A DNA stretch of 64,000 nt from Myxococcota bacterium (GTDB lineage Bacteria; Myxococcota_A; Polyangia; Nannocystales; Nannocystaceae). How positions within the stretch are numbered: the stretch's first letter is position 1; every line of letters begins with the position of its first letter. The stretch spans positions 96,001 to 160,000 of the forward strand of contig JBCCHT010000021.1 in the NCBI GenBank assembly GCA_039028615.1. Direction: 5' to 3'. Below the pieces are notes generated by a model. It was given only the letters and a program-made list of their open reading frames with translations, did no database searches and was not told the origin of the DNA. A program made the position numbers and the translations under genes. Below are positions 47,998-64,000 of the stretch, piece by piece.

Positions 47998-48000
47998 GGT

Positions 48001-48417
48001 TCACCGAGCCTGTGCCTGGGGCGCGGCGTCGTCGGCCTCCCGCGGAGCAGATGCCAAGTAGCCTTCGCCCTCACTCTGGGCTCGCAGGGCGTCGGCCTGC
48101 AGGCGCGACGTCTTGAACGAGGCAGAGCCGGGCCCCGAGAGGATCTGGCCTGCCCATGCGAAGCGAGCATCGCCATCGAAGTCGCGGCCGAACACGAACA
48201 TCAGCGTCAGGTAGCGCAGCAGGTCTCGCTCGGTGCGGAGGCCATAGGTCAGTCCCCGCTGCACGCAGTGCTCGATGGCGTCATCGATCTGCGCGGCCGA
48301 CAGCGCGTGTATCTGCTCGGCGAAATACTCTCGCAGGTGGACCCGCGCTCGCCCGCGAAACGGGTCTACGTCGTCGCGGACCATCGTCCACAGCTGGTCG
48401 GAACGAATCGTCAGCAT
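48001..48417 (-). CDS. Small protein resembling the C-terminal region of T6SS adaptor/chaperone (DUF4123-associated) proteins
   Basis: GAGGAG RBS; 'MLTIR..Q...HL...YGL.TE...RYL.L...G.DFD.D...WA..IL' pattern recalled from T6SS loci. Confidence 0.55.
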   Translation of the reverse strand: MLTIRSDQLWTMVRDDVDPFRGRARVHLREYFAEQIHALSAAQIDDAIEHCVQRGLTYGLRTERDLLRYLTLMFVFGRDFDGDARFAWAGQILSGPGSASFKTSRLQADALRAQSEGEGYLASAPREADDAAPQAQAR

Positions 48418-48689
48418 GTGTGCTCTCCTCTCGAGCTCGGCCGATTCCACGGCCATGCCCGGGGAGTGACTGGAGGGCCCGCGGTTGTTCAGCTCGCGAG
48501 AAAATTCTCGAGTTTGCCTGCGAATGGCCCTCATCGCCGTCTACGCGCGGCTACGATGCTCGACGACCGCCAACGCAGTCGCTGCAATTGGGCGGGTCGC
48601 GGCTCGAGCGCCGGACACCGGATCTTCGTGTCCGTGTGCGTGTCTTCGGATTGGAGCTCGAACGAGCGCGGCCCAGAGCCCGCCCTGGA

Positions 48690-49481
48690 TCAGAGCCCGG
48701 ATACCAGGCGCAGCTCGCAGTCACCCGTCGCGCCCAGGCCCTCGAGGCGCACGACGCCTCGGTCGTCGCTCTGACATTCGTGCACGGAGCCATCCGGTGC
48801 CACGACTTCGCAGGCTTGGTTGGCGACGGGCTCTCGGTCGGGATCGAGCAGGACGCACTCGAACCAGTCGTCGGTGGCTTCGAGCGGCGGCGCAACATCG
48901 GCCGAAGGCGAGAGCGCGGGCTGGTGGGTCAGCGGCGTGATGCGGTACTCGCCGCCACGGGGCAGTTCGTCGTAACGGATGAGCCCATCGTCGTCGGTTC
49001 GGGTGACGAAGGGCGGGGCATCGGGAGGCTCGACGAGGCAGCGCTGCCCCGCGATGGGGTTGCCGTCCTCGTCCTCGAGCCGACACTCGAAAAAGTGCAG
49101 GGTGGGGGCCGGAGTCTCCGCGGCGCGCAGCGGCGTGGCGGGATCTCCCGCCGTCAGGTCTCGTAGGTCGACCGCGTCCTCGATGATCGGGGTGAAGCTC
49201 ACTCGCGATCGAGGTCGCCGATGGATCGAGATACGGGAACAGGCGCCGCAGCCGTCGAGGAGCCGTTCGATGATCCGGGAATCGACACTGCGCAGCCGGC
49301 TGCCCCACGCGAAGAGGCTGCATAGGCGCTCCAGCTGACGATGGTCACGGGCCCGCCATAGCTCGTCGACCAGCGCGCGCTGCTCGCGAGCGCTCAGCGC
49401 GGGGACCCAAGCCGACTCGGGATGAGGAGGAGTGCGAGCCTCGTAGAGGTTCCCGTCGTGGCTCAGCTCGATCGTGGTCAT
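48690..49481 (-). CDS. Protein with two transthyretin-like/carboxypeptidase-regulatory-like repeats
   Basis: 'FECRLEDEDGNPIAGQ...TDDDG' and 'FECVLLDPDREPVANQ...SDDRG'. Confidence 0.65.
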   Translation of the reverse strand: MTTIELSHDGNLYEARTPPHPESAWVPALSAREQRALVDELWRARDHRQLERLCSLFAWGSRLRSVDSRIIERLLDGCGACSRISIHRRPRSRVSFTPIIEDAVDLRDLTAGDPATPLRAAETPAPTLHFFECRLEDEDGNPIAGQRCLVEPPDAPPFVTRTDDDGLIRYDELPRGGEYRITPLTHQPALSPSADVAPPLEATDDWFECVLLDPDREPVANQACEVVAPDGSVHECQSDDRGVVRLEGLGATGDCELRLVSGL

Positions 49482-49660
49482 TGGCAATCAACCCTCCCGT
49501 GGTGCGACCTCGTTCGAAAGAGGTCCCCAGCCGGGGCCTTCGGATCACGATCGCCGATCAGTGATCCACTCATGGCCTTGGGGGACCTCAACAGAGGGTC
49601 GGTCGCAGGTGGGAGCCCGGGCCGCGAAAGGTGACAGTCCGATGCAGGAGCAAACGCGCC

Positions 49661-50902
49661 ATGTTGGGTGAGACCGCCGTCGTGGGTCGAGTCGAGGGCG
49701 GCTGGGAATCGACCACACTGTCCACGGGAGCCTCCCACACGTTGATCCTGAAGCGGCGGGTCGCAGAGCGAATCCGGGTCACGGGGATGTTCTTCGAGAC
49801 CGAAAAGAGCTTCGTGCTGCCGGGGGCGCTGGCGGGCTTGCAGAGGCTGGTGACCCTCTCCGACGCGGGTTCCGCCAAGGAGATCGTGGTGGTCGGTCAC
49901 ACCGACGCCAGTGGGTCGAGGTCCTACAACCTGCAGCTGTCGCTCCAGCGCGCACGCAGTATGGCCGCGTATCTGCGCGACGACGTGGACGCATGGCTGG
50001 ACAACTATTCGCTGTCCGATGCGGACGAGCGCTGGGGGAGCCGCGAGGATTCCCTGATGCTCGGGGCCTTGCCGATGTCTCGGTCCACGCCCTACCTGGA
50101 CGACACCACCGAGCTCCACGATGCTGCGGCCGAGTTTCAGCGGGACGCCGGCCTCGAGCCGACGGGGATGATCGACGAGCCGACGCGGCGCGCCTTGATC
50201 GAGGCCTACATGGGTCTGGATGGAACGACGCTACCCGAGCCCGTTCGCGTGCTCTGCCATGGGTGCGGCGAGTTCTTTCCGACCGAAGACTCCACGGGTC
50301 CCACCGATCCTCGCGACCGCCGGGTGGAGCTGTTTTGCTTCGACCGCGCCATCGATCCCGAGCCGCCTTCGGAGGCGCCGAGCAAGGCGGACTCGCCGTA
50401 TCCGAAGTGGCTCGGCGCGGTCTCGAAGACTCACGAGCTGTCGGTCGACGGCGAGGGGGACGAGCTGCGCCTGACGCTTCTCGACGACGGCGGGGAGCCG
50501 ATGCCGGGTGCACCCTTCGTCGTGCGCTTCGCCGGCTCGATGCCGTTCGTGGGACATGCCGACGGCGAGGGCGTGGCCCATATCCCGACGCCGGCCATCT
50601 GCTCGGAGGACGTGGCCGTGAGCTGGGGAGGGCCCGGGGCGCAAGAGGGCCACGCGTATCACCGCCGGATCTTCGTCGACTGTGATGCTGGCGACGAGCC
50701 AGCGAAGATCGAGCGCAAGCTCCACAACCTCGGGTTCTCGCCCGACCTGGGGCTCGATGCTGCGGTACGGGCGTTCCAGCGCGAGCATGAGGTCGACGAT
50801 GAACCGGTACCCGTGGGTGCTCCGCAGGGGCAGCTCCCCGCGGGGACGGCTGCTCGTCTCGACGAGGTCTTCGACGAACTGTCTCGCGAACAGGTGGGAT
50901 GA
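49661..50902 (+). CDS. OmpA-like C-terminal domain protein with peptidoglycan-binding domains and TTR-like segment
   Basis: AGGAG RBS; 'VVGHTDASG...NLQLSLQRA', 'RRVEL'; 'FQRDAGLEPTG.ID..T' and 'AVRAFQ' PG-binding motifs; no signal peptide. Confidence 0.75.
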   Translation: MLGETAVVGRVEGGWESTTLSTGASHTLILKRRVAERIRVTGMFFETEKSFVLPGALAGLQRLVTLSDAGSAKEIVVVGHTDASGSRSYNLQLSLQRARSMAAYLRDDVDAWLDNYSLSDADERWGSREDSLMLGALPMSRSTPYLDDTTELHDAAAEFQRDAGLEPTGMIDEPTRRALIEAYMGLDGTTLPEPVRVLCHGCGEFFPTEDSTGPTDPRDRRVELFCFDRAIDPEPPSEAPSKADSPYPKWLGAVSKTHELSVDGEGDELRLTLLDDGGEPMPGAPFVVRFAGSMPFVGHADGEGVAHIPTPAICSEDVAVSWGGPGAQEGHAYHRRIFVDCDAGDEPAKIERKLHNLGFSPDLGLDAAVRAFQREHEVDDEPVPVGAPQGQLPAGTAARLDEVFDELSREQVG

Positions 50903-51311: not shown

Positions 51312-51643
51312 CGATCATCGATACCACGAATCAACCGCGGGGCCCGGTACGGAAGTCCGCGCCTCCGACCGACATGTCGCCGATTCCGTAGCGCCGTGGG
51401 GGTGGAGCTGGATCCAGGATCTTCGCCAGGGGTTCTTAATTCTGTTGGTCGACGGTTGTTCCCCCGAGTGTGCGTGGATGTTGCTCGAGCGCCGTTGTTC
51501 CCACTTCGGACCCTCGAAAGCTCGAGTTAAGCCACCTGTTCCTCCAGAGCATGGTTTGACATGGCTCGGGGGGTTGGTACGCCACAGACTACGAGCCAGA
51601 CATTCATCCTGTCTTGGTTCCACCCTCGTTCAACGGCTCGTCG

Positions 51644-53065
51644 ATGTCGCCGACCATCGCCCTGCTACTCGCTGCCCTCGCGGCGCCCCCTGCCTCGTCG
51701 GACGTCGAGGACCCGACGCCGGAGGCCCCGCGGGATCCGTGGCTGCAGCGCTGGCCCGCGGAGCGAAACATCGGCACGCTCGACGTCTTCGGTGGGCTCA
51801 TGGTGATGCGTCCGCAGCTCGAGCTGTTCGAGCCGGATCCCGCCGCCGTCGACCAGGGGTACGTGCCTCTACGTAGTGTGGCGCCCGAAATCGGTGCTCG
51901 CGTCGGCTTCTTCCCGGGACGGGTCGTGGGGCTGGAGCTGGAGGGGTCTTTGATGCCCACTCGCACGACGACCCGACGGTCCGCGCTGGTATGGGCAGTA
52001 CGGGGTAACGTGCTCTTGCAGCTGCCCACGTACTCCCTCACGCCCTTCGCCGTCGTCGGTCCGTCGCTGCTCGGGGTTGCATCGGGCGAAGGCGCGGTGG
52101 GGCACGACCAGGACTTCGGCGTGCATTTCGGCGTGGGGCTCAGGGCCCAGCTCAACCGCCACCTCGGACTGCGGCTCGACATTCGCGACACGCTCACCTC
52201 CCGGCGAGGCCTGGACGCTGGCTTCGCCCATACCCCCGAGGTCTTGCTGAGTGTGTCGGTCTCCCTGGGGCGCTCGCCCAGCCTGACCCCGCTGCCGACG
52301 TCCGGGCGCACGCGAGACGATGTCGATGGTGACGGCGTGCCGAACGAGGTCGATGCCTGCCCTTCGGTGGGCGGCTACGAGCAGTATCGTGGGTGCCTGG
52401 ACGACCCCCTCGGCGACCGTGACGGTGACGGCGTCGTCGATGCGGAGGACTTGTGTGTCGATACCCCGGGCGAACCAGACATCGGCTGTCCGTACATCCA
52501 CGAGGCCTATGACATGGACGGGGACGGCATCGACAACGAGTCCGATCGTTGTCCCTCGATCGCGGGGCTATCCCAGTACCAAGGCTGCCCGGATACCGAT
52601 GGCGACGGAATCCACGACCTCGACGACGAGTGCGCCGATCAGAGCGAGAACTACAACGGCTTCGCCGATGACGATGGCTGCCCCGACCAGCGACCGTTCG
52701 TTCTTCCGATCAAGCCGCTCTTCTTCGATGACGTCAGCTTCGAGCGAGGCCGACACCGCATCGGCGCCGAGTCGTACCCCGTGCTGGACGATGCCGTGGA
52801 GAAGCTCGAGTCGTTCACCGAGGTCCGGCTGGAGATCCGAGGACACACCGACTCTGCGGGGCGTGAGGAGGACAATCTGCGGATTAGCCTCGAGCGAGCA
52901 CAGGCGGTGAAGGACTACCTGGTCGAGCACGGCATCGAGCCCGAGCGGCTGGAGGTTCGCGGTGTCGGGTCGACTCAGCCGATCGCGAGAAACGACACCG
53001 ACAGAGGGCGTGCGGCCAATCGGCGGGTGGAGCTGAGGATCGTCTCGGCGTCGGATCGTCGGTGA
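51644..53065 (+). CDS. OmpA family outer membrane protein with thrombospondin type-3 repeats
   Basis: Signal peptide, beta-barrel region, DxDGDGxxDxxDxCP repeats, 'GHTDS...N..ISLERA...NRRVE'. Confidence 0.9.
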   Translation: MSPTIALLLAALAAPPASSDVEDPTPEAPRDPWLQRWPAERNIGTLDVFGGLMVMRPQLELFEPDPAAVDQGYVPLRSVAPEIGARVGFFPGRVVGLELEGSLMPTRTTTRRSALVWAVRGNVLLQLPTYSLTPFAVVGPSLLGVASGEGAVGHDQDFGVHFGVGLRAQLNRHLGLRLDIRDTLTSRRGLDAGFAHTPEVLLSVSVSLGRSPSLTPLPTSGRTRDDVDGDGVPNEVDACPSVGGYEQYRGCLDDPLGDRDGDGVVDAEDLCVDTPGEPDIGCPYIHEAYDMDGDGIDNESDRCPSIAGLSQYQGCPDTDGDGIHDLDDECADQSENYNGFADDDGCPDQRPFVLPIKPLFFDDVSFERGRHRIGAESYPVLDDAVEKLESFTEVRLEIRGHTDSAGREEDNLRISLERAQAVKDYLVEHGIEPERLEVRGVGSTQPIARNDTDRGRAANRRVELRIVSASDRR

Positions 53066-53586
53066 GGCGGGCACTGCCTGATCCTCAATCTATCGCATGA
53101 ACTCGGCACGAGCGTTCGTTGCAATTTGGGCCGCGGCGTCGAGCAACGGAGGGTGACGACGATGGCCCCTACACCTACGCCGTGACTCGGGGTTGGCATG
53201 AAGGCGCACCCCCGAGGCTCGCGGTGAAACGACCACTCGCCTCGAGGACGAACCGGATCACAGTTCTGCGTAGGACGTGCTGTTTCATGTCACGTTGAAA
53301 TCTACTCACATGCTCGTCGCTACATTCGCTCGCTTCCGATCGTACGAGTGGTCGTTGGATCGGTCTCGGGGCGTCGCGACGAACGTGAGACCGGCTCGGA
53401 ACACGGTGAGAGGACGCGGCTTCGAGCGAGGTGTCCCGATCGAGTTCTGGCGTTCGGCCGGGTGTTGCTTGGGCTATCATTGGGTGGCTTGGGTCGGAGC
53501 TTGGTAGCCGTCGTCGCGCGTGCGCGAGTCGGAGTCCGGCGGAGCATGGATGCTTGGTCGAAGTTCGAGGCAGGAGGCAAACAACG

Positions 53587-56500
53587 GTGAGATCGGAACA
53601 GACTCGACATGGATGTACCGTCGTCGCGGTGAGCGGCACGCATGGGGTGGCGCTCGCGATGGGGTGGCCGCAGGGACAGACGCAGGACCTGCTGGGGTTC
53701 GCAATCTCGCGTCGTGATGGCGGGGGGGAGCCGACTTGGTTACCGGTGGTCGTGCAGTTCGAGGGTCGGCCGATCGAGACGGGCAAGCTCTACCCGTCGA
53801 ACGAGTCGCCGATTCAGTCGATGGTGTGGAACGACTTCGGGGTCTCGGACGACAAGACCAGCCACGGCCTGCCCCCGGACACCGAATTCACCTATTCGGT
53901 CGCACCCGTGCGCGGGACCCCGGACCAGTTCCAGGTGTGCGAGGACCAAGCGGTCGCGGTCACCGTGCGCACCGAGCCCGAGTACGCCGAGAAGGGAGCC
54001 TCGGTGTTCTTCAACCGCGGGCTGTCCGATTCGCAGGAATACGAGCGCCTATTCGGCGAAGGCCACGTGCCCGATCCAAACAAGCCCGAGGACGCCGAAG
54101 CGATGGCCTGGCTCGCGCGGGGGCTGGATGTCGCCATCATCAAGTTCATCGAAGAGGCCATCGACGACGAGAGCCTGACCCTCGACGCGGCCGTGTATCA
54201 CCTGGACCATCAGGGGGTGATCGATGCGCTGGCCAAGCTCGGCAAGCGTTGTCGGGTGTCGATGGACTGGGGCAGCGAGGAGGAGCACGCCGATCCTCCC
54301 AATACGGGCCCCAACCAGCCGGCCTACGATCGGCTGACGAAGGCGGGGGTGACGGTGCATCAACGCCGGCACGTCGCCATCAGCCACAACAAGTACATGC
54401 TGCTCAAGGGAGCCGACGGCAAGGGCAAGGCGATCCTCACTGGTTCGACCAACTTTACCAACGGAGGCATCAGCACGCAGTCCAACCAGAGCGTGATCGT
54501 GCGCGACCCCGAGGTCGCGGCGGTGTACCTCGAGGACTTCGAGCGCGTGCTGCAGGACGACAACAAGGGGCTGCGCGAGTTCAACGCGCAAGGGGAGGTC
54601 ATCAGCGACTCTCTCGAGGTCTACTTTTCGCCGCACAGCGCCAGCGACACCCCCGATCTCGACCGCTTCAAGGCACTCGCTCGAGACGCCGAGTCGAGCA
54701 TGCTGTTTTTGACCTTCCGAATGACCTCGCACGAAGTGCTCTCGGAGATCTTCAGCCGCGGTGACTCGCAGGACGACGACCTGCTGGTCTTCGGCGTGGC
54801 CGACCGCGTCTATAAAGGCAACGACGGCAGCGGCGACCGCCTGATCTACGACGAGTCCCTGGCGGGCGACCCCCGCGTGGTCTCGGCCGCGGACCCTCTC
54901 GACGACCTCTCGGAGGAACCGGGCGAGGACGTCCTGTACGACGAGCTCAAGCGCGAGGGCTACGACCCGCTGGTCCATCACAAGATCCTGCTGGCGGACT
55001 GGGACAGCCCCGAGTGCACGGTGGTGACGGGCTCGGCGAACTACTCCAACAACTCCAGCAAGAACAACGACGAGAACTCGCTGGTGATCCGCGGAGACCA
55101 GCGGCTGGCACAGCAGTACTTCGTGGAGTTCGCTCGGCTCTATACCCACTGGCGTGGTCGCTGGCTGGAGGAGCGCAACTACAAGCACGAGCATCAGGCG
55201 CTGACGCTCGCCGCTGACTCGAGCTGGACGAAGACCTGGTACTCGGGCAGTCGCAACACCGAGCTGCTGAAGTTGGCGCTCGGGGCGGAGGCATTCGCGC
55301 GGACGATGGAGCCCACACCAGCGGAAAAGGTCGCGCGGGAGGCCGCTCGCAAGGCCGCGGCGCCTCGGATGGAGCACGTCATCGTGCTGATGCTCGAAAA
55401 CCGCTCCTTCGATCACATGATGGGCTTCCTGCCCGGGGTCGAGGGCGTGCTGGGCGACGACGGCAAGGTCGATCCGGCTCGCTACAACTACGCCGATCCG
55501 CTCGACTCGACCTCCGCCAAGTACACGGTGGGCCAGGCGGAGTACTTCGCGATCCCTGCCGACGATCACAAAGACGAATACGGCGGGCCCTCGCACTCCT
55601 ACCCGGCGGCGACCGAGCAGATCTTCGGCCAGAAGTATCAGCAGTCGTCTCCACCGGGGAGCGAGCCGGCGGTGAACAACGGCTTCATCAAGAGCTACAT
55701 CAAGGAGCTGAAGTTCTCGCAGAAGGTCGATGACCCCAAGGCGAAGCATGTCCGGGTGGCGATCGATGCGTTCTCGCCGACGCAGATGCCATCCATCAGC
55801 ACGCTGGCCGAGGAGTTCTGCGTGTGTGACCACTGGTACTCCGAGGTCCCCGGGCCCACGGAACCGAATCGGCTCTTCACCCATGCGGCGACCTCCGAGG
55901 GGCTGACCCACAACGTGTGGGACCACGCGATCCAGTCGCGGACCATCCAGGAGAACTTGGCCGCCAAGGGCCACTCCTGGCGGTTCTACTACCAAGATCT
56001 GAGCGACTCGAATCAGTTCCCTGCGCTCAAGCGGGAGGTGGACCAGGTCCGGCCGTTCGAGAAGCTCTACGAGGACCTCCGAAGTGGGGATCTGCCGGCG
56101 TACTCGTTTCTGTGCCCCCGGTACTCGGACACCGACACGGAGTTCGCCAACTCGCAGCACGCGCCCTACGACGTGCGCTACGGCGAGCACCTCATCGCGG
56201 ACGTGTACGAGGCGGTTCGCCGTAGCCCCAAGTGGAAGAACATCCTGCTCATCGTCACCTACGACGAGCACGGCGGGTTCTATGACCACGTCTACCCGCC
56301 GCGCGATGGCGTCCACAACCCGGATGGCCTGACTTCACCGACGGCCTACGATGCCGAGCTGAACAAGTCCAACCCCGACAAGTACGGCTACCTGATGGGG
56401 GACGACTACAAGTTCACCTTCCAGCGGCTGGGATGTCGGGTTCCCGCGGTGCTCATCTCACCGTGGATCGCCAAGGGCACGGTCGACTCCACTCGCTATC

Positions 56501-57042
56501 AGCACACCTCGATCGCGGCCACGCTCAAGGAGGTCTACGAGCTGCCCGAGTTCCTGACGCGACGGGATGCGCAGGCCAACACGTTCACATCCGTACTCGC
56601 TCGAGCGACGGAAGCCCGCGACGACGCGCCGCTCACCGTGCCGCGGCCGCCGTTGCCGGGGCAGGGGTCGAACGAGGCCGCGCCCGCTCCCGGGACGAAG
56701 CCGCTGGGGGTGCTGCAGCGAGGGGTCTACGCGACGCTGACTCACCTGGACGGTCACCCCGACTCCGGCAAGCCACCGCGCGTGCCCAAGACCCAGGCCG
56801 AGGCATCGGCGTACATCAAGGAGCGCTACGACGCCCACAACGCATTCCACCACGCGCTCGCGAAGAACGGCCGCTTCGAGGTCTACCAGGACAAGGCCGG
56901 GGAGCATCGGTGGCGCCTGCGGGACGGCGCCGGGCAGATCATCGCGAGCTCGGGCGAGGGCATGAAGACCAAGGCCGAGGTCGACGCCGAGATCGAGACC
57001 ATCCGCAACCTGGCGCCGTCGGCCGACCGCGCAGACGTTTGA
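53587..57042 (+). CDS. Fusion of phospholipase D (two HKD domains), phospholipase C/phosphoesterase (PlcH/AcpA family) and DUF1508
   Basis: GGAGG RBS + GTG; HNKYMLLK...GSTN (54385), HHKILLAD...GSAN (54976); 'HVIVLMLENRSFDH', 'GPTEPNR', 'TYDEHGGFYDHV', 'LGCRVP'; C-terminal 'FEVYQDKAGEHRWRL...SGEG'. Confidence 0.88.
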   Translation: MRSEQTRHGCTVVAVSGTHGVALAMGWPQGQTQDLLGFAISRRDGGGEPTWLPVVVQFEGRPIETGKLYPSNESPIQSMVWNDFGVSDDKTSHGLPPDTEFTYSVAPVRGTPDQFQVCEDQAVAVTVRTEPEYAEKGASVFFNRGLSDSQEYERLFGEGHVPDPNKPEDAEAMAWLARGLDVAIIKFIEEAIDDESLTLDAAVYHLDHQGVIDALAKLGKRCRVSMDWGSEEEHADPPNTGPNQPAYDRLTKAGVTVHQRRHVAISHNKYMLLKGADGKGKAILTGSTNFTNGGISTQSNQSVIVRDPEVAAVYLEDFERVLQDDNKGLREFNAQGEVISDSLEVYFSPHSASDTPDLDRFKALARDAESSMLFLTFRMTSHEVLSEIFSRGDSQDDDLLVFGVADRVYKGNDGSGDRLIYDESLAGDPRVVSAADPLDDLSEEPGEDVLYDELKREGYDPLVHHKILLADWDSPECTVVTGSANYSNNSSKNNDENSLVIRGDQRLAQQYFVEFARLYTHWRGRWLEERNYKHEHQALTLAADSSWTKTWYSGSRNTELLKLALGAEAFARTMEPTPAEKVAREAARKAAAPRMEHVIVLMLENRSFDHMMGFLPGVEGVLGDDGKVDPARYNYADPLDSTSAKYTVGQAEYFAIPADDHKDEYGGPSHSYPAATEQIFGQKYQQSSPPGSEPAVNNGFIKSYIKELKFSQKVDDPKAKHVRVAIDAFSPTQMPSISTLAEEFCVCDHWYSEVPGPTEPNRLFTHAATSEGLTHNVWDHAIQSRTIQENLAAKGHSWRFYYQDLSDSNQFPALKREVDQVRPFEKLYEDLRSGDLPAYSFLCPRYSDTDTEFANSQHAPYDVRYGEHLIADVYEAVRRSPKWKNILLIVTYDEHGGFYDHVYPPRDGVHNPDGLTSPTAYDAELNKSNPDKYGYLMGDDYKFTFQRLGCRVPAVLISPWIAKGTVDSTRYQHTSIAATLKEVYELPEFLTRRDAQANTFTSVLARATEARDDAPLTVPRPPLPGQGSNEAAPAPGTKPLGVLQRGVYATLTHLDGHPDSGKPPRVPKTQAEASAYIKERYDAHNAFHHALAKNGRFEVYQDKAGEHRWRLRDGAGQIIASSGEGMKTKAEVDAEIETIRNLAPSADRADV

Positions 57043-57054
57043 GGAGCAGTTTTC

Positions 57055-60000
57055 ATGACCGATCAGAATCAACCTGTGACCTTCCTCGACGGCGGCGGGC
57101 TCGACATCTCGAGCCAACATGCCCAGGACCTGTCTGGAGAACGCGGCGAGCAGCGCTTGCTGGACCGCTATCGGCTGATGCAGCGCGGGCTGGTCTATCC
57201 CGCGCCCTACGCCCGTTTCGTGAGCTACTGGACGGCCGAGGGCAAGTCGATCACGCGCGCGGACATCACCGCCGTGATGAAGCAAGTGCGTGACGAAATC
57301 CACGAGCGCTTTGGCTCCACCAACACGTCGGCCATCGTCGGCGTGAATTTCGATCTGTACCGGCAGTGGTGCGAAGACGATGGCGGCAGCATCCCGGCCG
57401 GTATGAAGCTGGCGTTCCCGGAGGACGGCAGCGAGCGTTCTTCGGTGTTCGACCGCTCGCGCGGGGTCTTTCAGGACTCCGAGGCCAGCCTGTGGTTCCA
57501 CATCAAGTCGGACGAGCAGGCCAACCTCGAGGGGGTGAACGAGGTGGTGTCCAAGGCCCTCGGGGACTTGGTGGGGCGCAGCGTGTACCAGGACTGCAAC
57601 CAACGGCTGCGGCCGGGGAGCGGGGACGCGGGGCGGGTGCTCGGCAAGCGCTTCGCCGAGAACCTCAACAACCCCACCGACCCGGTGACCATCGCTCACC
57701 ACACGCTGGTGGGGCACGACGACATCGAGCACCTGGGGGCGTCCTACGCCCTCGCTCAGCGCTTCTATATCAACTGGGAGCGCATCCACCAGATGGCGGA
57801 GGAGCAGGTCGAGGACATCATCGGCCGCAACTCGAACGACGAATTCCTGCCGAACCGAGACACGCGGAGCCACATCAAGTCCGCTCGACAGCAGGACGCG
57901 CAGGGCAACACCACGTTCGTGATGCGGCTCGGGCTGCCGTTCGGAGCTTCGCCCTACGCTTCACGCCCCGACCTCGCGCTGGCCGGCAACAACCGCGGGG
58001 ACGAGGCGGGAATCTACTTCGCCGGGTTCGCCAAGCGAGTGGACGTGTTCGAGACGATCATGAGCGCACAGATCGGCGACACGCCCGGCTTCATGAACGA
58101 CCGGTTGTTCAACAACCTGCGCTCCGATCTGGGCGGGTTCTTCTACATCCCCAACCGTCGCGACCTGGGCCTCGTGCCCGAGCCGTGGGCGAAGGAGTCG
58201 GAGCGAGACTGGACGCGCTTCCCGGGCATCGACTGGTCGCGGCTGTCCCGTCACTTCACCGACAAGTCACCCAACGGGTGGATGTACTACAACCACAAGA
58301 ACTATCTGTACGAGATGGCCACGATGCCGACGGAGCGGCGGGCACAGCTGAACCCGCCCTCCACGCGCATCTTGACCTTGCTCATGGACATGTTCGCCCG
58401 CTGGCAGGACGCCTGGTACTTCGCCAAGGGCCAAGACGACATGGGGTCGCTATACGACCACATCGCCAGCGACCCCGACTTTGGCCCGGAGAAGGCCAAG
58501 GAGGTGCATGGGCTGTCCATCATGGAGCGCAAGGGCTGGGCCACGCGCATGCAGTGCCGGCTCTACGCGACGGATGCCTATGGCTATCGAGGGCGGCGGA
58601 AGGTCGATGGGGTCGATCGCCCGGGCGCCGATACCTACCGGATCCACCCCGAGGAGATCATCGTGGGGGCGCTGCCGGATCTGAGCCTGGGGCAGGGCCG
58701 CTACTGCATGAAGTACCTGCGCGAGGAGGAGCGTCAGCCGGCGTTCTTCCGCGGCCTGACCGAGGCCTCCGGCGTGGGCCACGTGCTGCCCGACCATCAG
58801 AAGCTGGTCGACCTCGGGCTCGGCAGGCTCTTGGCCGAGATCGACGCCAAGGCCGAGTCGGTGGCCGATGACGACAAGCCGTTCTACCGTGCGTGCCGTT
58901 TGTCGCTCGAGGGCGTGCAGGACCACCTCGAACGCTACGCCGCGCTCGCCGACTCGATGGCGGCCGCGTGTGCGCACGGGCAGGCGGCGGAGCGCAACAA
59001 CCTCGAGCAGATCGCGGCTCGCTGTCGGGCCCTACGCACCGACCAGCCATCGAGCATGGTCGAGGCGGCGCAGCTCATCTTCACCTATCACACGTGTCTG
59101 CACCTCAACGGTGAGCCGGTCTCGGTCGGGCGTCTCGACCAGTACCTCGGGCGCTTTCACGACGCGGACATCGAGGCGGGGCGCCTCACTCCCGAGGGCG
59201 CGCAGGAGATCATCGACGCGCTGTGGGTCAAGCTCTCGGAGAAGATCCTGCAGAACCGGATCTTCATTCATGACCACCAGCCCTACGGAAACCTGGCCAT
59301 GGGTGGCGGCTCGGGGCCGTACCCGCAGGGGGCGTCGCTCGGGCAGTGGATCATGCAGGTGACGGTCGGCGGCTGGGTTGCCGACGAGGAGAAGGTACCC
59401 ACGCCCGCGTACAACGAGGTCACCCGGCTGTGCATTCGCGCCTCGGGCCGCCTGCCGCTGACGGCCCCGTGTCTGTCGCTACGGGTCAATGCCCACACCC
59501 CCGCCGACCTGCTCGAGGAGGCCGCACGCGCGGTCCTCTCTGGTGGCGCGCACCCGATCCTGCTGCACGACGACAAGATCGCGGCCGGGCTCGCGCAGTC
59601 GGGCGACGGGATCGGCGAGGGCGACCCGAACAACCCGACCGCGTCTACCCCGGTCGCGGCCAAGGCCCAGGGGCGCTGGGACAGCCAGGTCAGCATCGCC
59701 AGCGCGCGTAACTTCGCCAGCGACGGCTGCTACGAGCCGCTGTTCACCGGGCAGACCTGGTTTGCGCTGGGGGGCTTTTCAACCCTCAACCCCCTGGAGT
59801 GCGCGCTCAACCAGGGCCGTTCCTACGCGTCCGCGGGGGAGACCTTCCTGCACGGGCAGAACCTCTCGTTCCATACCCCCCCGGCGGAGCAGATCGAGAG
59901 CTTCGAGCAGCTCCTGGAGCTTTACTTCACGCACTTCCGACTGCTGTGGGCCAAGACCTTCGACGGCCAGATATCCACCTTCGACGCTCTGGCCGATATC

Positions 60001-60996
60001 TGCCCGGCGCCGCTGCTGTCGGTGCTGACGGACGACTGCCTGGCGAAGGGACAGGACATCTACGGGGGAGGGGCACGCTACAACGTCTACGCGCCGTGCT
60101 GGATCGGGCTCAGCACCACCATCAACAGCCTGTGGAACATCAAGCGCATGGTGTTCGACGAGGACTCGATGGTCACTTCTCTGGCGGAGCTGCTCGAGTG
60201 CCTGATGTGCGACTGGGGCAACAAGATGGTCGAGCCCATGGTCAGCTCGTTGATCGGGCCCAACCGCATCGCGGCCAAGGCGGTTCGGTTCCAGCGCCTG
60301 CGGGAGATTGCCTTGTCTATGCCGCGCTACGGCGAGGGCAACCCCGAGGTGGACGAACTCGGTGATCGCATCGTGCACGAGGTCGCGAGGTTGACCGTCG
60401 ACGTGCTGCGGAACCCGGCCGAGTCCACGGCCAAGAAGATGCTGGACTTCGCCAACCGGCACGGCACGCCGGAGCAGCCCTTCGGAGGCTTCCAGATCCA
60501 CCCGGGCACGGGGACCTTCGAGAACTTCTCCGCGTTTGGTGTGGGCAGCGGGGCGTCGGCGGACGGACGGCGTCTCAACGCTCCCATCGCCAGCGACATG
60601 AGTGCGGCCCCGGCACGTTCCGATGCCCCGGCCGACCCCGCGTACGTGCCCTTCGATGCCGCTCTGGCCAGCAGCGAAGGCGATGGAGCCAGCGCGATGT
60701 GGGACGGAGCGCCCACCGACTTCAACATCGACGAGACCTTTCCCGTGCAGACCCTCGCCGACATGTTCGGTCAGTTCGCCCGCGGCAAGGGCAGCAACAT
60801 CCTGACGGTGACCGTCGCGTCGCGGGAGACCTTCACCGAGGCACCCAGCCACCCGGAGTCCTACGACCTACTCCGCGTCCGCATGGGAGGCTGGTCCGAG
60901 TACTTCACGTCGATGTTCCCCGTCAGTCAGGTCCAGCACCAGCGGCGGCCGGTCATGACTCCACCCCACGACGCCGCCGACACCAAGGAGGGATGA
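57055..60996 (+). CDS. DyP-type heme peroxidase fused to glycyl radical enzyme (PFL-like) domain
   Basis: GAGGAG RBS; DyP motifs LWFHIKS, FAENLNNP, GASY..AQ, IIGR, SHI, MRLGLPFG, GIYFAGF, GGFFYIP (aa 1-366); GRE motifs SVGRLDQYL, GCYEP (C892), ASADGR, LRVRMGGWS (G1279). Confidence 0.88.
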   Translation: MTDQNQPVTFLDGGGLDISSQHAQDLSGERGEQRLLDRYRLMQRGLVYPAPYARFVSYWTAEGKSITRADITAVMKQVRDEIHERFGSTNTSAIVGVNFDLYRQWCEDDGGSIPAGMKLAFPEDGSERSSVFDRSRGVFQDSEASLWFHIKSDEQANLEGVNEVVSKALGDLVGRSVYQDCNQRLRPGSGDAGRVLGKRFAENLNNPTDPVTIAHHTLVGHDDIEHLGASYALAQRFYINWERIHQMAEEQVEDIIGRNSNDEFLPNRDTRSHIKSARQQDAQGNTTFVMRLGLPFGASPYASRPDLALAGNNRGDEAGIYFAGFAKRVDVFETIMSAQIGDTPGFMNDRLFNNLRSDLGGFFYIPNRRDLGLVPEPWAKESERDWTRFPGIDWSRLSRHFTDKSPNGWMYYNHKNYLYEMATMPTERRAQLNPPSTRILTLLMDMFARWQDAWYFAKGQDDMGSLYDHIASDPDFGPEKAKEVHGLSIMERKGWATRMQCRLYATDAYGYRGRRKVDGVDRPGADTYRIHPEEIIVGALPDLSLGQGRYCMKYLREEERQPAFFRGLTEASGVGHVLPDHQKLVDLGLGRLLAEIDAKAESVADDDKPFYRACRLSLEGVQDHLERYAALADSMAAACAHGQAAERNNLEQIAARCRALRTDQPSSMVEAAQLIFTYHTCLHLNGEPVSVGRLDQYLGRFHDADIEAGRLTPEGAQEIIDALWVKLSEKILQNRIFIHDHQPYGNLAMGGGSGPYPQGASLGQWIMQVTVGGWVADEEKVPTPAYNEVTRLCIRASGRLPLTAPCLSLRVNAHTPADLLEEAARAVLSGGAHPILLHDDKIAAGLAQSGDGIGEGDPNNPTASTPVAAKAQGRWDSQVSIASARNFASDGCYEPLFTGQTWFALGGFSTLNPLECALNQGRSYASAGETFLHGQNLSFHTPPAEQIESFEQLLELYFTHFRLLWAKTFDGQISTFDALADICPAPLLSVLTDDCLAKGQDIYGGGARYNVYAPCWIGLSTTINSLWNIKRMVFDEDSMVTSLAELLECLMCDWGNKMVEPMVSSLIGPNRIAAKAVRFQRLREIALSMPRYGEGNPEVDELGDRIVHEVARLTVDVLRNPAESTAKKMLDFANRHGTPEQPFGGFQIHPGTGTFENFSAFGVGSGASADGRRLNAPIASDMSAAPARSDAPADPAYVPFDAALASSEGDGASAMWDGAPTDFNIDETFPVQTLADMFGQFARGKGSNILTVTVASRETFTEAPSHPESYDLLRVRMGGWSEYFTSMFPVSQVQHQRRPVMTPPHDAADTKEG

Positions 60997-61000
60997 GGCC

Positions 61001-62929
61001 ATGGAACGCGCATTCGATCGAATCCTCGTGATCATGTTCGAAAACCAGTATCGCGAGTACGTGATGGCCAACCCCTATATGCGTGGGCTCGCGCGGCAGG
61101 GGATCGACATGGCCAACTTTCACGGCGTGATGCATCCGTCGCAGACCAACTACATCGCCTCGGTGTCGGGCGAGCTGTGCAACGTCACCGACGACGACTC
61201 GCCGGGCCTGCTGCCGCAGCGCACCATCGTGGACCTCATCGAGGAGGCTCCCGGTGACCTACAGTGGAAGGCGTACATGGATGGCTATCGGCCGGCCAAG
61301 ACGCCCTGGACCCCGGAGCTGGTGCCACAGGACGACTTCCCCTACGTCATCAAGCACAACCCGTTTTCATCGTACGGCAACATCGTGCGCAACGAGTTGC
61401 GGTGGAAGCGAATCGTGGACCAGACGCAGTTCTTCCGCGACGTGCTCAACGGCGAGCTGCCCCACTACGCCTGGTTTACGCCAGACATGTGGAACGACGG
61501 GCACTACACCGACGGGACCCAGAGCGAGCCGGCGGAGCGCGCCCCGGCCCTGGTCGACCAGCTGGCGCGGTGGCTCGAGGAGTTCTTCGGGGCGCTCGAC
61601 TTTCCTGGGCCCGACTCGAGGCTGCCCAAGGGCACCCTGGTCGTGGTGACCTTCGACGAGTCCGATTTCCTGAAGAAGTTCGATGCGGGCAAGAAGTACA
61701 CCTACGACGGTCCGAACCAGGTCTATACCGTGCTGCTGGGCGACATGATCGAGCCCGGCGTGCAGGACGGGGCCTACAACCACTACAACTTGCTGCGCAC
61801 GATCGAGCTGAACTTCGGGCTCGGCGACCTGGGCAAGAACGACGCGGGGGCGACTCCGCTGCGGTTTTTGTGGGGGCAGACCTTCGACTGGGAGCCGCCC
61901 GAGGATACGCCGATCCACACCCATGGCCACGTCGCGAGCGCGGGCCTGGGGGATGTGCTGCACGTGGTCGTCCGTGATGAAGACGGCGGCTTGCGGCACA
62001 CGACCTTCAACGGCCAGGCCTGGGGGGTGCCCCGACCGATCGGAGCTCGTTCGACCGGTCCGCTGTGCATGGCCGCGAGGGGCGACCAGCTGGTGCTGAT
62101 GTTCGCGGGCGACAAGGGGCAGCTGTCGTCGTTGACCTACGACCTTCAGCACGGCTGGTCCTCCGAGCCCGAGGCCGTGGCCGTGGGGGAGAGCCGACAC
62201 ATCGCGTTGTGTGCCTTCGGAGGCGGCAGCGAGCTGATGGCCGTGTGGGTCGACGGGGAGGCGATCAAGTCGCGCCGCTACGACGGCTCGGGTTGGGCGC
62301 CCGACACGACCGACACCGGGCACACCACCCAAGGGGCGCTGGCCATCGGTGCGATCGGCCCTTCGCTGTTCTTGGTGTTCCAGAGCGAGGATGGGGGCCT
62401 GAGCGCGGTTACCTACAACACCGCGGACTTCAACACGACGACCGTCGCCACCTCCAAGTACTCGGGACCGTGGGATGACACCGTGGCCAACCAGTGGTCG
62501 CCGAGCGCATTCGCGGTGGGGCGTTTCGGCGCCGCAGCGTTCGAAGGGACGCCGAAGGAACTCGAGCCCGTCACCGTGCCGGTCGAGTCCGGGGCCCCGG
62601 TGGTCATGGCCGCCCACGACGGCACATTGCACCTCGCCCACGCGGGGGTGGCCAACCGTCAGCTGCTCACCGAGCGCTTCTCGGTGCCCGGTGTTCTCAC
62701 GCCCAAGCTCCGCGTCTCGTACAAGGCCACCGAGGACAAGACCACCAGCAACGGCTACGGCACGCTGGCCGAGGCCGGGTGGACGAGCTCGGAGCCCATC
62801 GACTTCAGCTGGGTCGGTGAAGGCGGGGCCGCCAGCATGGCGACCGTGGGCGACGAGCTGGTGCTGCTCGCACAGCCCGAGGCGGGCGGCCCGTTGCAGA
62901 TCCTCGTGGCGGGCTACGAGCAAGAGTGA
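61001..62929 (+). CDS. Acid phosphatase/phosphoesterase (SapM/fungal acid phosphatase-like) with C-terminal beta-rich domain
   Basis: 'VIMFEN', 'HPSQTNY', 'KHNPF', 'NDGH', 'TFDE', 'NHYNLLRTIE'; 4 bp from the previous stop. Confidence 0.85.
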   Translation: MERAFDRILVIMFENQYREYVMANPYMRGLARQGIDMANFHGVMHPSQTNYIASVSGELCNVTDDDSPGLLPQRTIVDLIEEAPGDLQWKAYMDGYRPAKTPWTPELVPQDDFPYVIKHNPFSSYGNIVRNELRWKRIVDQTQFFRDVLNGELPHYAWFTPDMWNDGHYTDGTQSEPAERAPALVDQLARWLEEFFGALDFPGPDSRLPKGTLVVVTFDESDFLKKFDAGKKYTYDGPNQVYTVLLGDMIEPGVQDGAYNHYNLLRTIELNFGLGDLGKNDAGATPLRFLWGQTFDWEPPEDTPIHTHGHVASAGLGDVLHVVVRDEDGGLRHTTFNGQAWGVPRPIGARSTGPLCMAARGDQLVLMFAGDKGQLSSLTYDLQHGWSSEPEAVAVGESRHIALCAFGGGSELMAVWVDGEAIKSRRYDGSGWAPDTTDTGHTTQGALAIGAIGPSLFLVFQSEDGGLSAVTYNTADFNTTTVATSKYSGPWDDTVANQWSPSAFAVGRFGAAAFEGTPKELEPVTVPVESGAPVVMAAHDGTLHLAHAGVANRQLLTERFSVPGVLTPKLRVSYKATEDKTTSNGYGTLAEAGWTSSEPIDFSWVGEGGAASMATVGDELVLLAQPEAGGPLQILVAGYEQE

Positions 62930-62939
62930 CGGGCGGTGA

Positions 62940-62975
62940 CCGAAGCCGGGCGGACCGAGTCATGCCCGGCTTCGG
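62940..62975. terminator. 12-bp stem hairpin between convergent genes, ending the PLD/DyP-GRE/phosphatase operon
   Basis: ccgaagccgggc-N12-gcccggcttcgg. Confidence 0.65.
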
Positions 62976-62990
62976 CGGTTCATCGGCCGT

Positions 62991-64000
62991 TCAGCGAGCC
63001 GTGTCGCACGCCTCGAGCCACTGCTCCACGTCTGCGATCTCATTGGACGCCCCAGGGCCGTATTCGACGTAGGCTTTGTGGGCGCGTCGGGCGAGGGCGC
63101 ATGCCTCGTTCGAGGGGGAAGCCGTGCCGGTCATGACGCGGGCCTGAACGAACTGCACGCTGGCGAGAATGTCTGGGTGACCCTCGATCGCATCGGCGAT
63201 TGCTGCGGCGTGGTCGGCGTGGTGCTTTGCCCGATCGAAGTCGCGCTGCTCGACCGCGACATCGGCGAGGCCCACCAGGGTCCGCGCCGTGGCGGGGTGC
63301 TCGGGACCCAGCGCCCATTGCTGGACATCAAACGCCCGCTGCAGGTGCTCTCGTGCGTCCTCTAGGCGCCCCATCTCGATGAGCAGGAGGCCGAGGTAGC
63401 AGTCGTCGTAGGCGACGAAGGGATGATTGGGGCCGAGGTGAGCCAGCTCGATCCGCCGGGCACTTCGGTAGGCCTGCTCGGCATCTTCGAATTTGTGCTG
63501 GGACATGAGGATATGGCCGAGGTTGGCGAGGATCGGAGCGAGCGTATGGTGCTCTCGCCCGTTTGCCCGCTCGACAAAGCGGAGCTTCTGGCGGGTGTGT
63601 GCCTCGGCCTCGGCATAGCGTCCCTGGAGCGCCTCGAGGTTGGCGAGGCGCCCCACGAGCCGCTCGGGAGCGAGCTCGGGGTCTGCAGAGAAACCCTCGG
63701 CCATCTCGATCGCCCGGCCATAGGTGATCCGGGCGTCCTCGAGCTTGCTCTGGCAGAGCAGCACGTCGCCTAGCATGAGCTGGACCTTCGAGGCATCCGG
63801 TGACGTTGGGGACGGCAGCTGCCCGTGGATGTCTTCGGCCTCACGGAGCAGCCGTTCCGCGCCGACACAGTTCCCCTTCTGCTTGTCGATGCGGGCGAGC
63901 AAGAACAACGCGTTGGCGACGGCGGGGTGATGAGGACCCAACGAATCCCGGCGGGCATCGAGGGCCCACGTGGCGTGTCCTGCGGCGGCCTCGAATCGGC
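62991..64000 (-). CDS. TPR-repeat protein, 3' portion (probably C-terminus of a Ser/Thr kinase-TPR protein); starts beyond the window
   Basis: Repeated '(L)GP.HP..A' kinesin-light-chain-like TPR units. Confidence 0.8.
   Translation of the reverse strand, partial: RFEAAAGHATWALDARRDSLGPHHPAVANALFLLARIDKQKGNCVGAERLLREAEDIHGQLPSPTSPDASKVQLMLGDVLLCQSKLEDARITYGRAIEMAEGFSADPELAPERLVGRLANLEALQGRYAEAEAHTRQKLRFVERANGREHHTLAPILANLGHILMSQHKFEDAEQAYRSARRIELAHLGPNHPFVAYDDCYLGLLLIEMGRLEDAREHLQRAFDVQQWALGPEHPATARTLVGLADVAVEQRDFDRAKHHADHAAAIADAIEGHPDILASVQFVQARVMTGTASPSNEACALARRAHKAYVEYGPGASNEIADVEQWLEACDTAR

Follow-up and report, generated by a model that had tools for sequence, protein, structure and literature searches.

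A fused DyP peroxidase and glycyl radical enzyme in a myxobacterial phosphoester-hydrolase cassette, a candidate for a peroxide-activated radical eliminase

To our knowledge, characterised glycyl radical enzymes (GREs) are confined to anoxic life. According to the part of PMC7077986 at hand, all characterised GREs need an oxygen-sensitive radical-SAM activase that depends on S-adenosylmethionine (SAM). The closest described relatives of the protein studied here are fusions of a dye-decolorizing peroxidase (DyP) with a pyruvate formate-lyase (PFL)-like domain. The accessible text of PMC9719856 names them DyP subclass P2, describes their occurrence in bacteria and eukaryotes as patchy, records a tolerated change of the distal Asp to Glu and proposes that the DyP guards PFL and its activase from H2O2. 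In the available sections of PMC5041501, the significance of a DyP B-PFL fusion of Chaetomium is called elusive, and its gene was induced 3-fold by H2O2 and 18.5-fold by peracetic acid. The fusion is known already, its function is not; in the literature covered, to which subscription journals largely did not belong, we found no functional study of the activation or the substrate of such a protein. Here we describe a member encoded in a stretch of 64,000 nucleotides of a Myxococcota bacterium (assembly GCA_039028615.1, contig JBCCHT010000021.1, positions 96,001 to 160,000), hereafter called the window. It is the product of gene 2 in a cassette of three genes, the outer two of which encode phosphoester hydrolases (Table 1). 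With a probability of about 0.4, we propose that it is a radical eliminase, activated by itself through peroxide, which acts on a polyol or nucleoside after dephosphorylation and resides in a mobile phosphoester-hydrolase cassette.

By its Pfam domains (Dyp_perox_C, PFL-like and Gly_radical, the last scoring 20.6 bits and thus below the whole-protein cut-off of 22.2 bits), gene 2 is a member of subclass P2, with both domains in one chain. The published fusions have the same N-terminal class P DyP and C-terminal PFL-like domain; the text at hand gives no function for them, assumes a separate activase and makes no mention of phosphoesterase neighbours, of partners from DyP classes V and I or of animal carriers. 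Class P (B) was assigned from the best matches, namely DypB, DtpB-type proteins, TyrA and encapsulin-associated DyPs. Elsewhere in the source genome (G000), an open frame of 676 amino acids (aa) also gives a DyP match, though a weak one (C72:24155-24637).

Conservation was read from an alignment of 135 homologs (15 loci and 120 proteins) with a mean column identity of ~49%. The heme-site residues of the DyP, proximal His273, distal Arg291 and Asp349, were each present in 135/135 sequences, while the distal acid at position 202 was Glu in 129 and Asp in six. Without exception, too, were H576, E687, D890, C892 and E894 of the GRE part and R1274, R1276, G1278, G1279 and W1280 in the region of the Gly loop. 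Both halves of the protein look intact, with apparently complete heme and radical sites. W450 was also found in all aligned homologs; its distribution, 9/9 class P fusions and 0/7 others, makes it a candidate relay residue at the domain interface. A corresponding role of W454, Y455 and W1280 as fusion-specific relay residues was dropped after fusions and other GREs had been compared.

A structure was modelled by AlphaFold for a 1196-aa homolog (L090, 36% identical to gene 2) and reached a pLDDT of 86 and a pTM of 0.89, the latter suggesting a defined packing of the DyP and GRE domains, as expected of a rigid two-domain protein. The model matched GRE eliminases with Z values of 31-32.5 (root-mean-square deviation ~2.8-2.9, ~700-708 residues aligned) and class P DyPs with a Z value of 32.1 (2.6, 295 residues aligned), and it displayed the 10-stranded barrel, the Cys loop and the C-terminal Gly loop of the GRE fold. 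Residues 410-530 of gene 2, considered as a linker, were placed inside the GRE fold by the structure match. The gene of this homolog (L090:6397-9855) and that of another short DyP-GRE (~1190 aa, L088:454-3834) are each directly preceded by a SAM-adenylate cyclase-AAA gene.

A CxE motif in the Cys loop marks GRE eliminases according to the part of PMC7077986 seen, and gene 2 carries it as C892-Y-E894. Barrel, CxE loop and Gly loop are common to gene 2 and the eliminases glycerol dehydratase (GD, 1r8w), propanediol dehydratase (5i2a), CutC (5fau, 9f3w), HypD (6vxc) and YbiW/PflD; gene 2 differs from them by an identity of only 20-25%, other substrate residues, the lack of an adjacent activase and the fused heme domain. 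All NCBIfam GRE models scored far below their cut-offs: CutC (TIGR04394) with 116.6 bits against 1050, HypD (NF043068) with 135.7 against 1100 and PFL (TIGR01255) with 29.4 against 994. Pyruvate formate-lyase carries an adjacent Cys-Cys pair, gene 2 a single Cys in GCYE; by score and Cys motif this enzyme was rejected. CutC was compared through its PDB alignment (5fau, 9f3w), and its sequence was not found in the five genomes searched. The Asp of its GGGD loop (Asp520, chain 9f3w), which presumably has a role in choline lyase, aligns to the invariant His576, which argues against choline, and with the TIGR04394 score choline lyase was rejected as well. Four residues of GD which we take to contribute to substrate binding behave differently: His164 (1r8w numbering) is kept as His576, and in the sequence alignment His281 corresponds to Glu687, Asp447 to Ala904 (Thr/Ser/Ala) and Tyr640 to Gly1153. 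With the CutC Asp lost and three of the four GD positions changed, neither choline nor glycerol chemistry is indicated; the three replacements rather suggest a different, perhaps larger polyol. In the alignment, Leu905 takes the position of the Arg in the GYRCTG strand of YbiW, which presumably binds phosphate; this fits a substrate without a phosphate group. Judged by sequence, gene 2 is not CutC, GD, HypD or PFL. Of the enzymes that the original prediction had named for comparison of the active site, CutC, GD, HypD and IslA, GD thus agrees in His164 and the CxE motif is kept, while the CutC Asp, three GD positions and the HypD score disagree; the profile match to IslA (7kq3, E 2.8e-48) is one of overall similarity.

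More striking, and missed in the original prediction, is that no canonical activase was found. Whole-genome searches rest on four carrier genomes, G000 (96.7% complete), G227 (90% complete), G681 and G451; a canonical activase was absent from three of them, and that of the fourth (G451) has another client. In G000, gene 2 encodes the sole PFL-like protein, and no match to TIGR02494, TIGR02493 or TIGR02491 exceeded the cut-off. There were 66 radical-SAM matches in all, of which only the two best sub-cut-off ones were classified: one is an AmmeMemoRadiSam enzyme, the other a 211-aa Fer4_12 protein that resembles NrdG. G227 yielded neither an activase-model match over cut-off nor an NrdG-like match, and G681 none over cut-off for the two models run (TIGR02494 and TIGR02491); G681 encodes two NrdG-like Fer4_12 radical-SAM proteins (L163, L166). 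The inspection of 70 DyP-GRE loci disclosed no plausible activase open reading frame (ORF) with the CxxxCxxC motif; the five motif matches all lay in shadow-like or non-activase ORFs. Ordinary GREs in the control genomes G018, G027 and G325 had an adjacent activase. Gene 2 would work like a GRE eliminase, yet a cognate activase, which members of that group possess, was not found, and the NrdG-like protein is a weak candidate for it.

Some observations on radical-SAM genes may be added. The gene of the NrdG-like protein of G000 resides on contig C1 at 464.6 kb (L172:7573-8205) among unrelated genes; of the NrdG-like genes at L172, L163 and L166 one adjoins an fvmX6 gene, and another lies near genes for a pseudouridine synthase and an EVE-domain protein. 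About 18 radical-SAM matches of G000 form a dense cluster, probably a large biosynthetic locus (C17:43000-110000). Within the same class, three ORFs of ~1090-1175 aa with a CxxxCxxC activase N-terminal to a GRE were seen in G047 (L025:235-3495, L017:691-3501) and G058 (L019:301-3594). In these natural fusions the activator takes the same N-terminal position as the DyP in DyP-GRE.

The GRE part was searched against 1.84 billion representatives. The top 29 matches comprised 25 representatives of at least 700 aa, of which 23 carried a class P DyP; of the two exceptions, one (P0248) starts only within the GRE part, and the other (P0259) has the stand-alone form of the Hymenobacter type. Two further proteins, P0289 and P0290, contain a class V DyP (AnaPX, 1.5e-76) fused to the GRE. 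This class V family (P0289, P0290, P0304/P0410), with the loops AGCWE and RVGGWN, represents an independent second fusion. On the Hymenobacter plasmid NZ_CP095048 (L141:7935-14056) a stand-alone GRE relative is followed by a class I DyP as the next gene, then by a PLD (phospholipase D) gene related to gene 1 (30%) and a HAD hydrolase gene, besides divergent genes for trypsin-like proteases; both the GRE and the DyP gene are annotated in pieces. The DyPs of classes P, V and I exhibited no significant mutual BLAST similarity (best E 0.28). In FastTree trees, computed with SH-like support and rooted at midpoint only, the three DyP-linked groups fell into neighbouring clades apart from the activase-linked GREs; given the midpoint root and a short basal branch, monophyly of the DyP-linked GREs is suggested, not proven. 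The data suggest that the same GRE branch recruited DyPs of three classes, which is new here. If three unrelated peroxidases were taken on by related radical enzymes, peroxide may switch such enzymes on. In uncharacterised clades of stand-alone GREs (P0278, P0280, P0282, P0286, P0287, P0295, P0309 and relatives) the Cys loop reads DGCWE and the Gly loop often RxGGW. Searches for stand-alone sister GREs gave only the Hymenobacter record among plasmids, nothing among viral contigs and, in the phylum, a single match, an ordinary GRE with activase.

Eukaryotic carriers include Hydractinia (P0401, RefSeq), Mytilus (P0263), the choanoflagellate Diaphanoeca (P0245) and the three amoebozoans Phalansterium (P0258), Mastigamoeba (P0267) and Pelomyxa (P0268). 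The occurrence of DyP-GRE sequences in animals is new here. The Hydractinia protein keeps all heme (His/Arg/Asp) and radical (Cys, Gly) residues; in the models of Mytilus and Phalansterium the Gly loop is missing in the alignment. Some of these fusions have additional domains, a C-type lectin in Mytilus, C2 in Diaphanoeca and DUF2278 in Pelomyxa. We know of no GRE activase from animals. In random samples, each counting the source genome, carriers numbered 2/401 (phylum), 1/201, 1/22 and 2/73 (family), and a scan of genome contigs with the single protein gave one locus.

The 70 DyP-GRE loci form 31 groups at 80% identity. Adjacent co-directional phosphoester hydrolases, belonging to non-homologous families, were detected in eight. 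In five groups (L043/L106, L044, L045, L055-57, L059) a gene 3 homolog lies upstream of the fusion; four of them have a PLD gene downstream, and one also a DNase II gene. In the other three (L040, L058/60/65, L052) a 5'-nucleotidase gene lies upstream, preceded by nuclease genes (S1/P1 and non-specific types) or by a gene for a Nuc-like PLD. The L038/39 group contains a gene 1-type PLD gene 2.6 kb off on the opposite strand and the L101 group DUF2278, which also occurs near the fusion in Asticcacaulis and Ralstonia. This leaves 21 groups that show none; six had little flank, and L103-L105 were examined by BLAST only. In G681 the fusion is preceded by a HAD acid phosphatase and followed by a trypsin-EEP gene, while G227 and L173 exhibit no such neighbour. 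Among 98 near genes, hand-picked from 174 candidates, 17 belonged to the partner families, compared with 0/80 control genes at least 5 kb off in 18 loci; for the controls a stricter E cut-off was applied, which all 17 near matches would pass. The partners extend beyond phospholipases to S1/P1 and non-specific nucleases, DNase II, 5'-nucleotidases, a HAD acid phosphatase and an EEP domain. The 80 distant genes included three other phosphatases or nucleases. Such associations are found on no fewer than five distinct branches of the tree. That homologs of the fusion neighbour phosphoesterases, as the original prediction had expected, was hence borne out well above background and on several branches. 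A congener (G005) harbors orthologs of gene 1 (67%) and gene 3 (72%) 32 bp apart at another chromosomal site, and G003 and G688 contain gene 3 alone. An obligatory three-gene unit was rejected, as G005 pairs genes 1 and 3 without a GRE. Past this pair (L178:3739-8495), G005 has ORFs whose N-termini resemble a ferritin-like protein and a FAD oxidoreductase.

In the mechanism that we favour, H2O2 would oxidise the DyP heme, and the hole would travel via conserved Trp/Tyr residues (candidates W450, W454, Y455, Y893 and W1280) to Gly1279 and/or Cys892, the heme route replacing the SAM/[4Fe-4S] activase. To this peroxide-driven activation in cis, taken by itself, we would give roughly even odds. 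The thiyl radical of Cys892, together with Glu894 and His576, would then remove water or amine from its substrate, a small vicinal diol or amino alcohol that bears no phosphate. Such a substrate might be freed from lipids, nucleic acids or phosphoglycans by the flanking phosphodiesterase (PLD or phospholipase C (PLC) here, nucleases elsewhere) and phosphomonoesterase; these partners would deliver a free alcohol (glycerol, inositol, an amino alcohol) or a nucleoside. The locus narrows the candidate substrates to what phosphoesterases release in dephosphorylated form; among these, choline is less likely than a polyol or a nucleoside sugar. In this scheme the hydrolases would supply substrate where they are present and would not be required as subunits. 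Class I ribonucleotide reductase (RNR), which shares the barrel superfold (Z ~10 with the model) and works with a cofactor derived from oxygen, may serve as an analogy, since there an oxygen-derived oxidant reaches the finger-loop Cys through aromatic residues. Unlike class I RNR, gene 2 would employ heme instead of a dimetal site as oxidant, in cis, and it keeps the Gly loop; it has no RNR family match and is no member of that family. If the mechanism is true, one chain that starts GRE chemistry from heme and peroxide would break the rule of radical-SAM activases and anoxic life, GRE-like genes in aerobes and animals would be explained, DyP peroxidases would gain a defined physiological job, and a radical biocatalyst made of one protein would become available. 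The generalisation to a class is more tentative than the reading of gene 2: activase-free glycyl/thiyl radical enzymes, whose radical a peroxidase makes from H2O2, would have arisen at least three times, with the recruitment of different DyP classes, and have spread to aerobic bacteria as well as to fungi, protists and animals; the bacterial ones would complete a hitherto undescribed phosphodiesterase-phosphatase-eliminase route by which nucleic-acid or lipid fragments are broken down.

Several points weigh against this proposal. Activity, heme binding and radical formation of gene 2 are predicted from sequence and from the model of a homolog with 36% identity. W454 and W1280 also occur outside the fusions and are older than the fusion. 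Both G000 and G681 encode NrdG-like Fer4_12 proteins, a true PflA adjoins the PFL of G451, a sub-cut-off PflA-like match, unclassified, lies on a Ralstonia megaplasmid, and for Chaetomium a putative PFL activase is described in the available part of PMC5041501. DyP-less stand-alone proteins (P0295, P0309, P0311, P0317, P0323, P0324) share the tree neighbourhood of the fusions. Two of the carriers, Mastigamoeba and Pelomyxa, are anaerobes. Since oxygen cleaves glycyl radicals, an enzyme of this kind that works in air has to be shielded or to form the thiyl radical directly. As to the neighbours, 23/31 groups are without an adjacent co-directional phosphoester hydrolase, kin inflate the count of 17/98, and in G005 there is no GRE between the orthologs of genes 1 and 3, nor was a fusion found elsewhere in that genome.

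Some of these observations would be expected if the cassette served antagonism or defence and its products (phospholipases, nucleases, proteases, a lectin-tipped phosphatase) were co-packaged but biochemically independent cargo, the DyP-GRE being one more damaging or stress enzyme and not the end of a pathway. The different sites of the cassette in G000 and G005, the finding of the GRE in 0/5 congeners, the trypsin-EEP, trypsin-like protease, SIR2 and S8 genes near other fusion loci, the lectin propeller of gene 3 and the C2, C-type lectin and DUF2278 domains of eukaryotic DyP-GREs point in this direction, as does the lack of a secretion signal in genes 1-3. Nutrient salvage is rather resembled by the partners at L040, L058 and L052, an ordered series of nuclease, nuclease and 5'-nucleotidase with N-termini that, by eye, look like signal peptides. 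We regard such a cassette as doubtful, yet worth keeping in mind; it would be compatible with peroxide activation. Unlikely, in our view, is that the DyP acts as a peroxide shield only, while an unrecognised radical-SAM protein sets the glycyl radical in trans, which follows the view in the accessible parts of PMC9719856 and PMC5041501. The Fer4_12 proteins of G000 (C1, 464.6 kb) and G681, the putative Chaetomium activase (PMC5041501) and the SAM-dependent activase of all characterised GREs in the text seen of PMC7077986 fit a shield. But G227 (90% complete) has no NrdG-like match, the G000 protein is encoded among unrelated genes, one G681 copy adjoins a gene with an FtsH-ternary-system domain, an activase was never adjacent in 70 loci, and a shield alone poorly explains three DyP recruitments and animal carriers.

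The original prediction had seen a pathway in which membrane phospholipids are taken apart by the products of genes 1 and 3 and one head group, be it choline, ethanolamine, glycerol, inositol or serine, goes on to the GRE. Of this, the linkage to hydrolases, the NPC4-like PLC and PLD folds of gene 1, the PLD genes downstream in four groups, the C2 domain of the choanoflagellate homolog, the CxE motif and the kept GD His164 stand. Less favourable are the change of the CutC Asp to His and of GD His281, Asp447 and Tyr640 to Glu, Ala/Thr/Ser and Gly, as well as the broader range of partners, with nucleases and nucleotidases occupying the same slot elsewhere, and the GRE-free pair of G005. The pathway is improbable in the form proposed, and with inositol or glycerol as substrate it possibly overlaps with the favoured eliminase. 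Most improbable of all appears a barrel without a glycyl-radical cycle, be it a substrate-binding or scaffold partner of the peroxidase or a site of two-electron Cys thiol chemistry. The weak Gly_radical score and the missing activase would suit it, but G1279, R1274, R1276, C892, E894 and H576 are invariant at a column identity of ~49%, as those of working radical loops would be.

Gene 1 (Pfam: two PLDc_2, Phosphoesterase and DUF1508) starts at the point where the similarity to its G005 ortholog begins. The PLD predicted for it was recovered as tandem folds, whereas the first HKD motif was not: only the second HxKxxxxD is intact, and the first reads HxKxxxxK, with Lys for Asp and His and Lys kept. 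The PLD part has weak PDB matches to MitoPLD and Nuc, and its substrate may be lipid or nucleic acid. Its residues 595-1022 are closest to plant NPC4 (PDB 8hav, 2e-65). Gene 1 shares the PLC domain with plant NPC4 and bacterial PF04185 phospholipases C and differs from them by the added tandem PLD and DUF1508; the score for the phosphocholine-specific model TIGR03396 was 141.9 bits, under its cut-off of 580, while PF04185 itself was matched.

Gene 3 (Pfam: Phosphoesterase, PF04185) contains a propeller domain that was previously unnoticed and is missing from the original prediction. Its model (pLDDT 92.7) gave lectins and PLC-N as Foldseek matches. The modelled fold is common to fucose-binding propeller lectins (AAL, AFL, PLL, PHL); in gene 3 the propeller is only 13-15% identical to these and fused to a phosphoesterase, and sugar binding is only predicted. 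The label 'SapM-like' was unconfirmed, as there was no NCBIfam match and no PDB sequence match; SapM itself was not compared. Among the named homologs of gene 3, the closest (71%) comes from a myxobacterium, by which the host is probably an aerobic myxobacterium.

Table 1. Features of the three-gene cassette (positions of the window; aa, residues of the respective protein)
Feature	Position	Strand	Remarks
Shine-Dalgarno-like AGGAGG, gene 1	53572-53577	+	read from sequence
Gene 1 (P0001) ORF	53587-57042	+	GTG start, 1151 aa
Gene 1 tandem PLD-fold domains			aa ~1-560; motifs HNKYMLLK and HHKILLAD
Gene 1 NPC4-like phospholipase C/phosphoesterase PF04185			aa 595-987; Pfam, PDB
Gene 1 DUF1508/YegP-like domain			aa 1102-1150, C-terminal; Pfam
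Shine-Dalgarno-like GAGGAG, gene 2	57041-57046	+	overlaps gene 1 stop; read from sequence
Gene 2 (P0002) ORF	57055-60996	+	1313 aa; predicted class P DyP heme peroxidase and GRE barrel
Gene 2 DyP domain	57187-58161	+	aa 45-369; TIGR01413 above cut-off
Gene 2 GRE barrel	58282-60963	+	aa ~410-1303; Trp450, Trp454, Tyr455 at N-terminal end; His576, Glu687
Gene 2 Cys loop D890-G-C892-Y-E894	59722-59736	+	CxE eliminase type; aligned to GD/PD (propanediol dehydratase)/CutC Cys loops
Gene 2 Gly loop R1276-M-G-G1279-W1280	60880-60894	+	aligned to RVAGYS
Shine-Dalgarno-like AAGGAGG, gene 3	60985-60991	+	within gene 2 end; read from sequence
Gene 3 (P0003) ORF	61001-62929	+	642 aa
Gene 3 alkaline-phosphatase-superfamily phosphoesterase			aa ~1-292; invariant E14, HPSQTNY, H119, D166-G-H168 (alignment)
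Gene 3 PLL/AAL fucose-lectin-type beta-propeller			aa ~295-642; Atlas structure search, Foldseek
GC-rich hairpin	62928-62994		between gene 3 and convergent TPR gene

The layout foreseen for the locus was confirmed: the three genes are co-directional with gaps of 12 bp (genes 1 and 2) and 4 bp (genes 2 and 3), and each is preceded by a Shine-Dalgarno-like site 8-9 nt ahead of its start. A crude hydropathy scan likewise agreed with the expected absence of signal peptides: none of the products of genes 1-3 showed a Tat motif or began with a hydrophobic stretch. The hairpin thought to close the unit is strong (-46.3 kcal/mol, z -5.8; 0/200 shuffles equally good) but has no U-tract and is absent from the list of eight terminator-like sites; it is possibly a terminator or an RNA stabiliser. 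Being single-copy in the genome, it was rejected as a repeated element. The promoter/terminator site scan found no sigma-70 promoter-like site. By their GC content at third codon positions (0.88-0.90), genes 1-3 do not look recently acquired from a foreign source. Upstream of the cassette, window positions 51614-53065 encode one of many OmpA paralogs, in which TSP3 repeats are combined with a beta-barrel domain. Further upstream lies a co-directional cluster on the minus strand (44075-50902) that is suggestive of a secretion or effector locus; it comprises genes for a peptidoglycan-binding protein of OmpA-like type and an 810-aa protein with an HExxH motif, besides small unknown ORFs.

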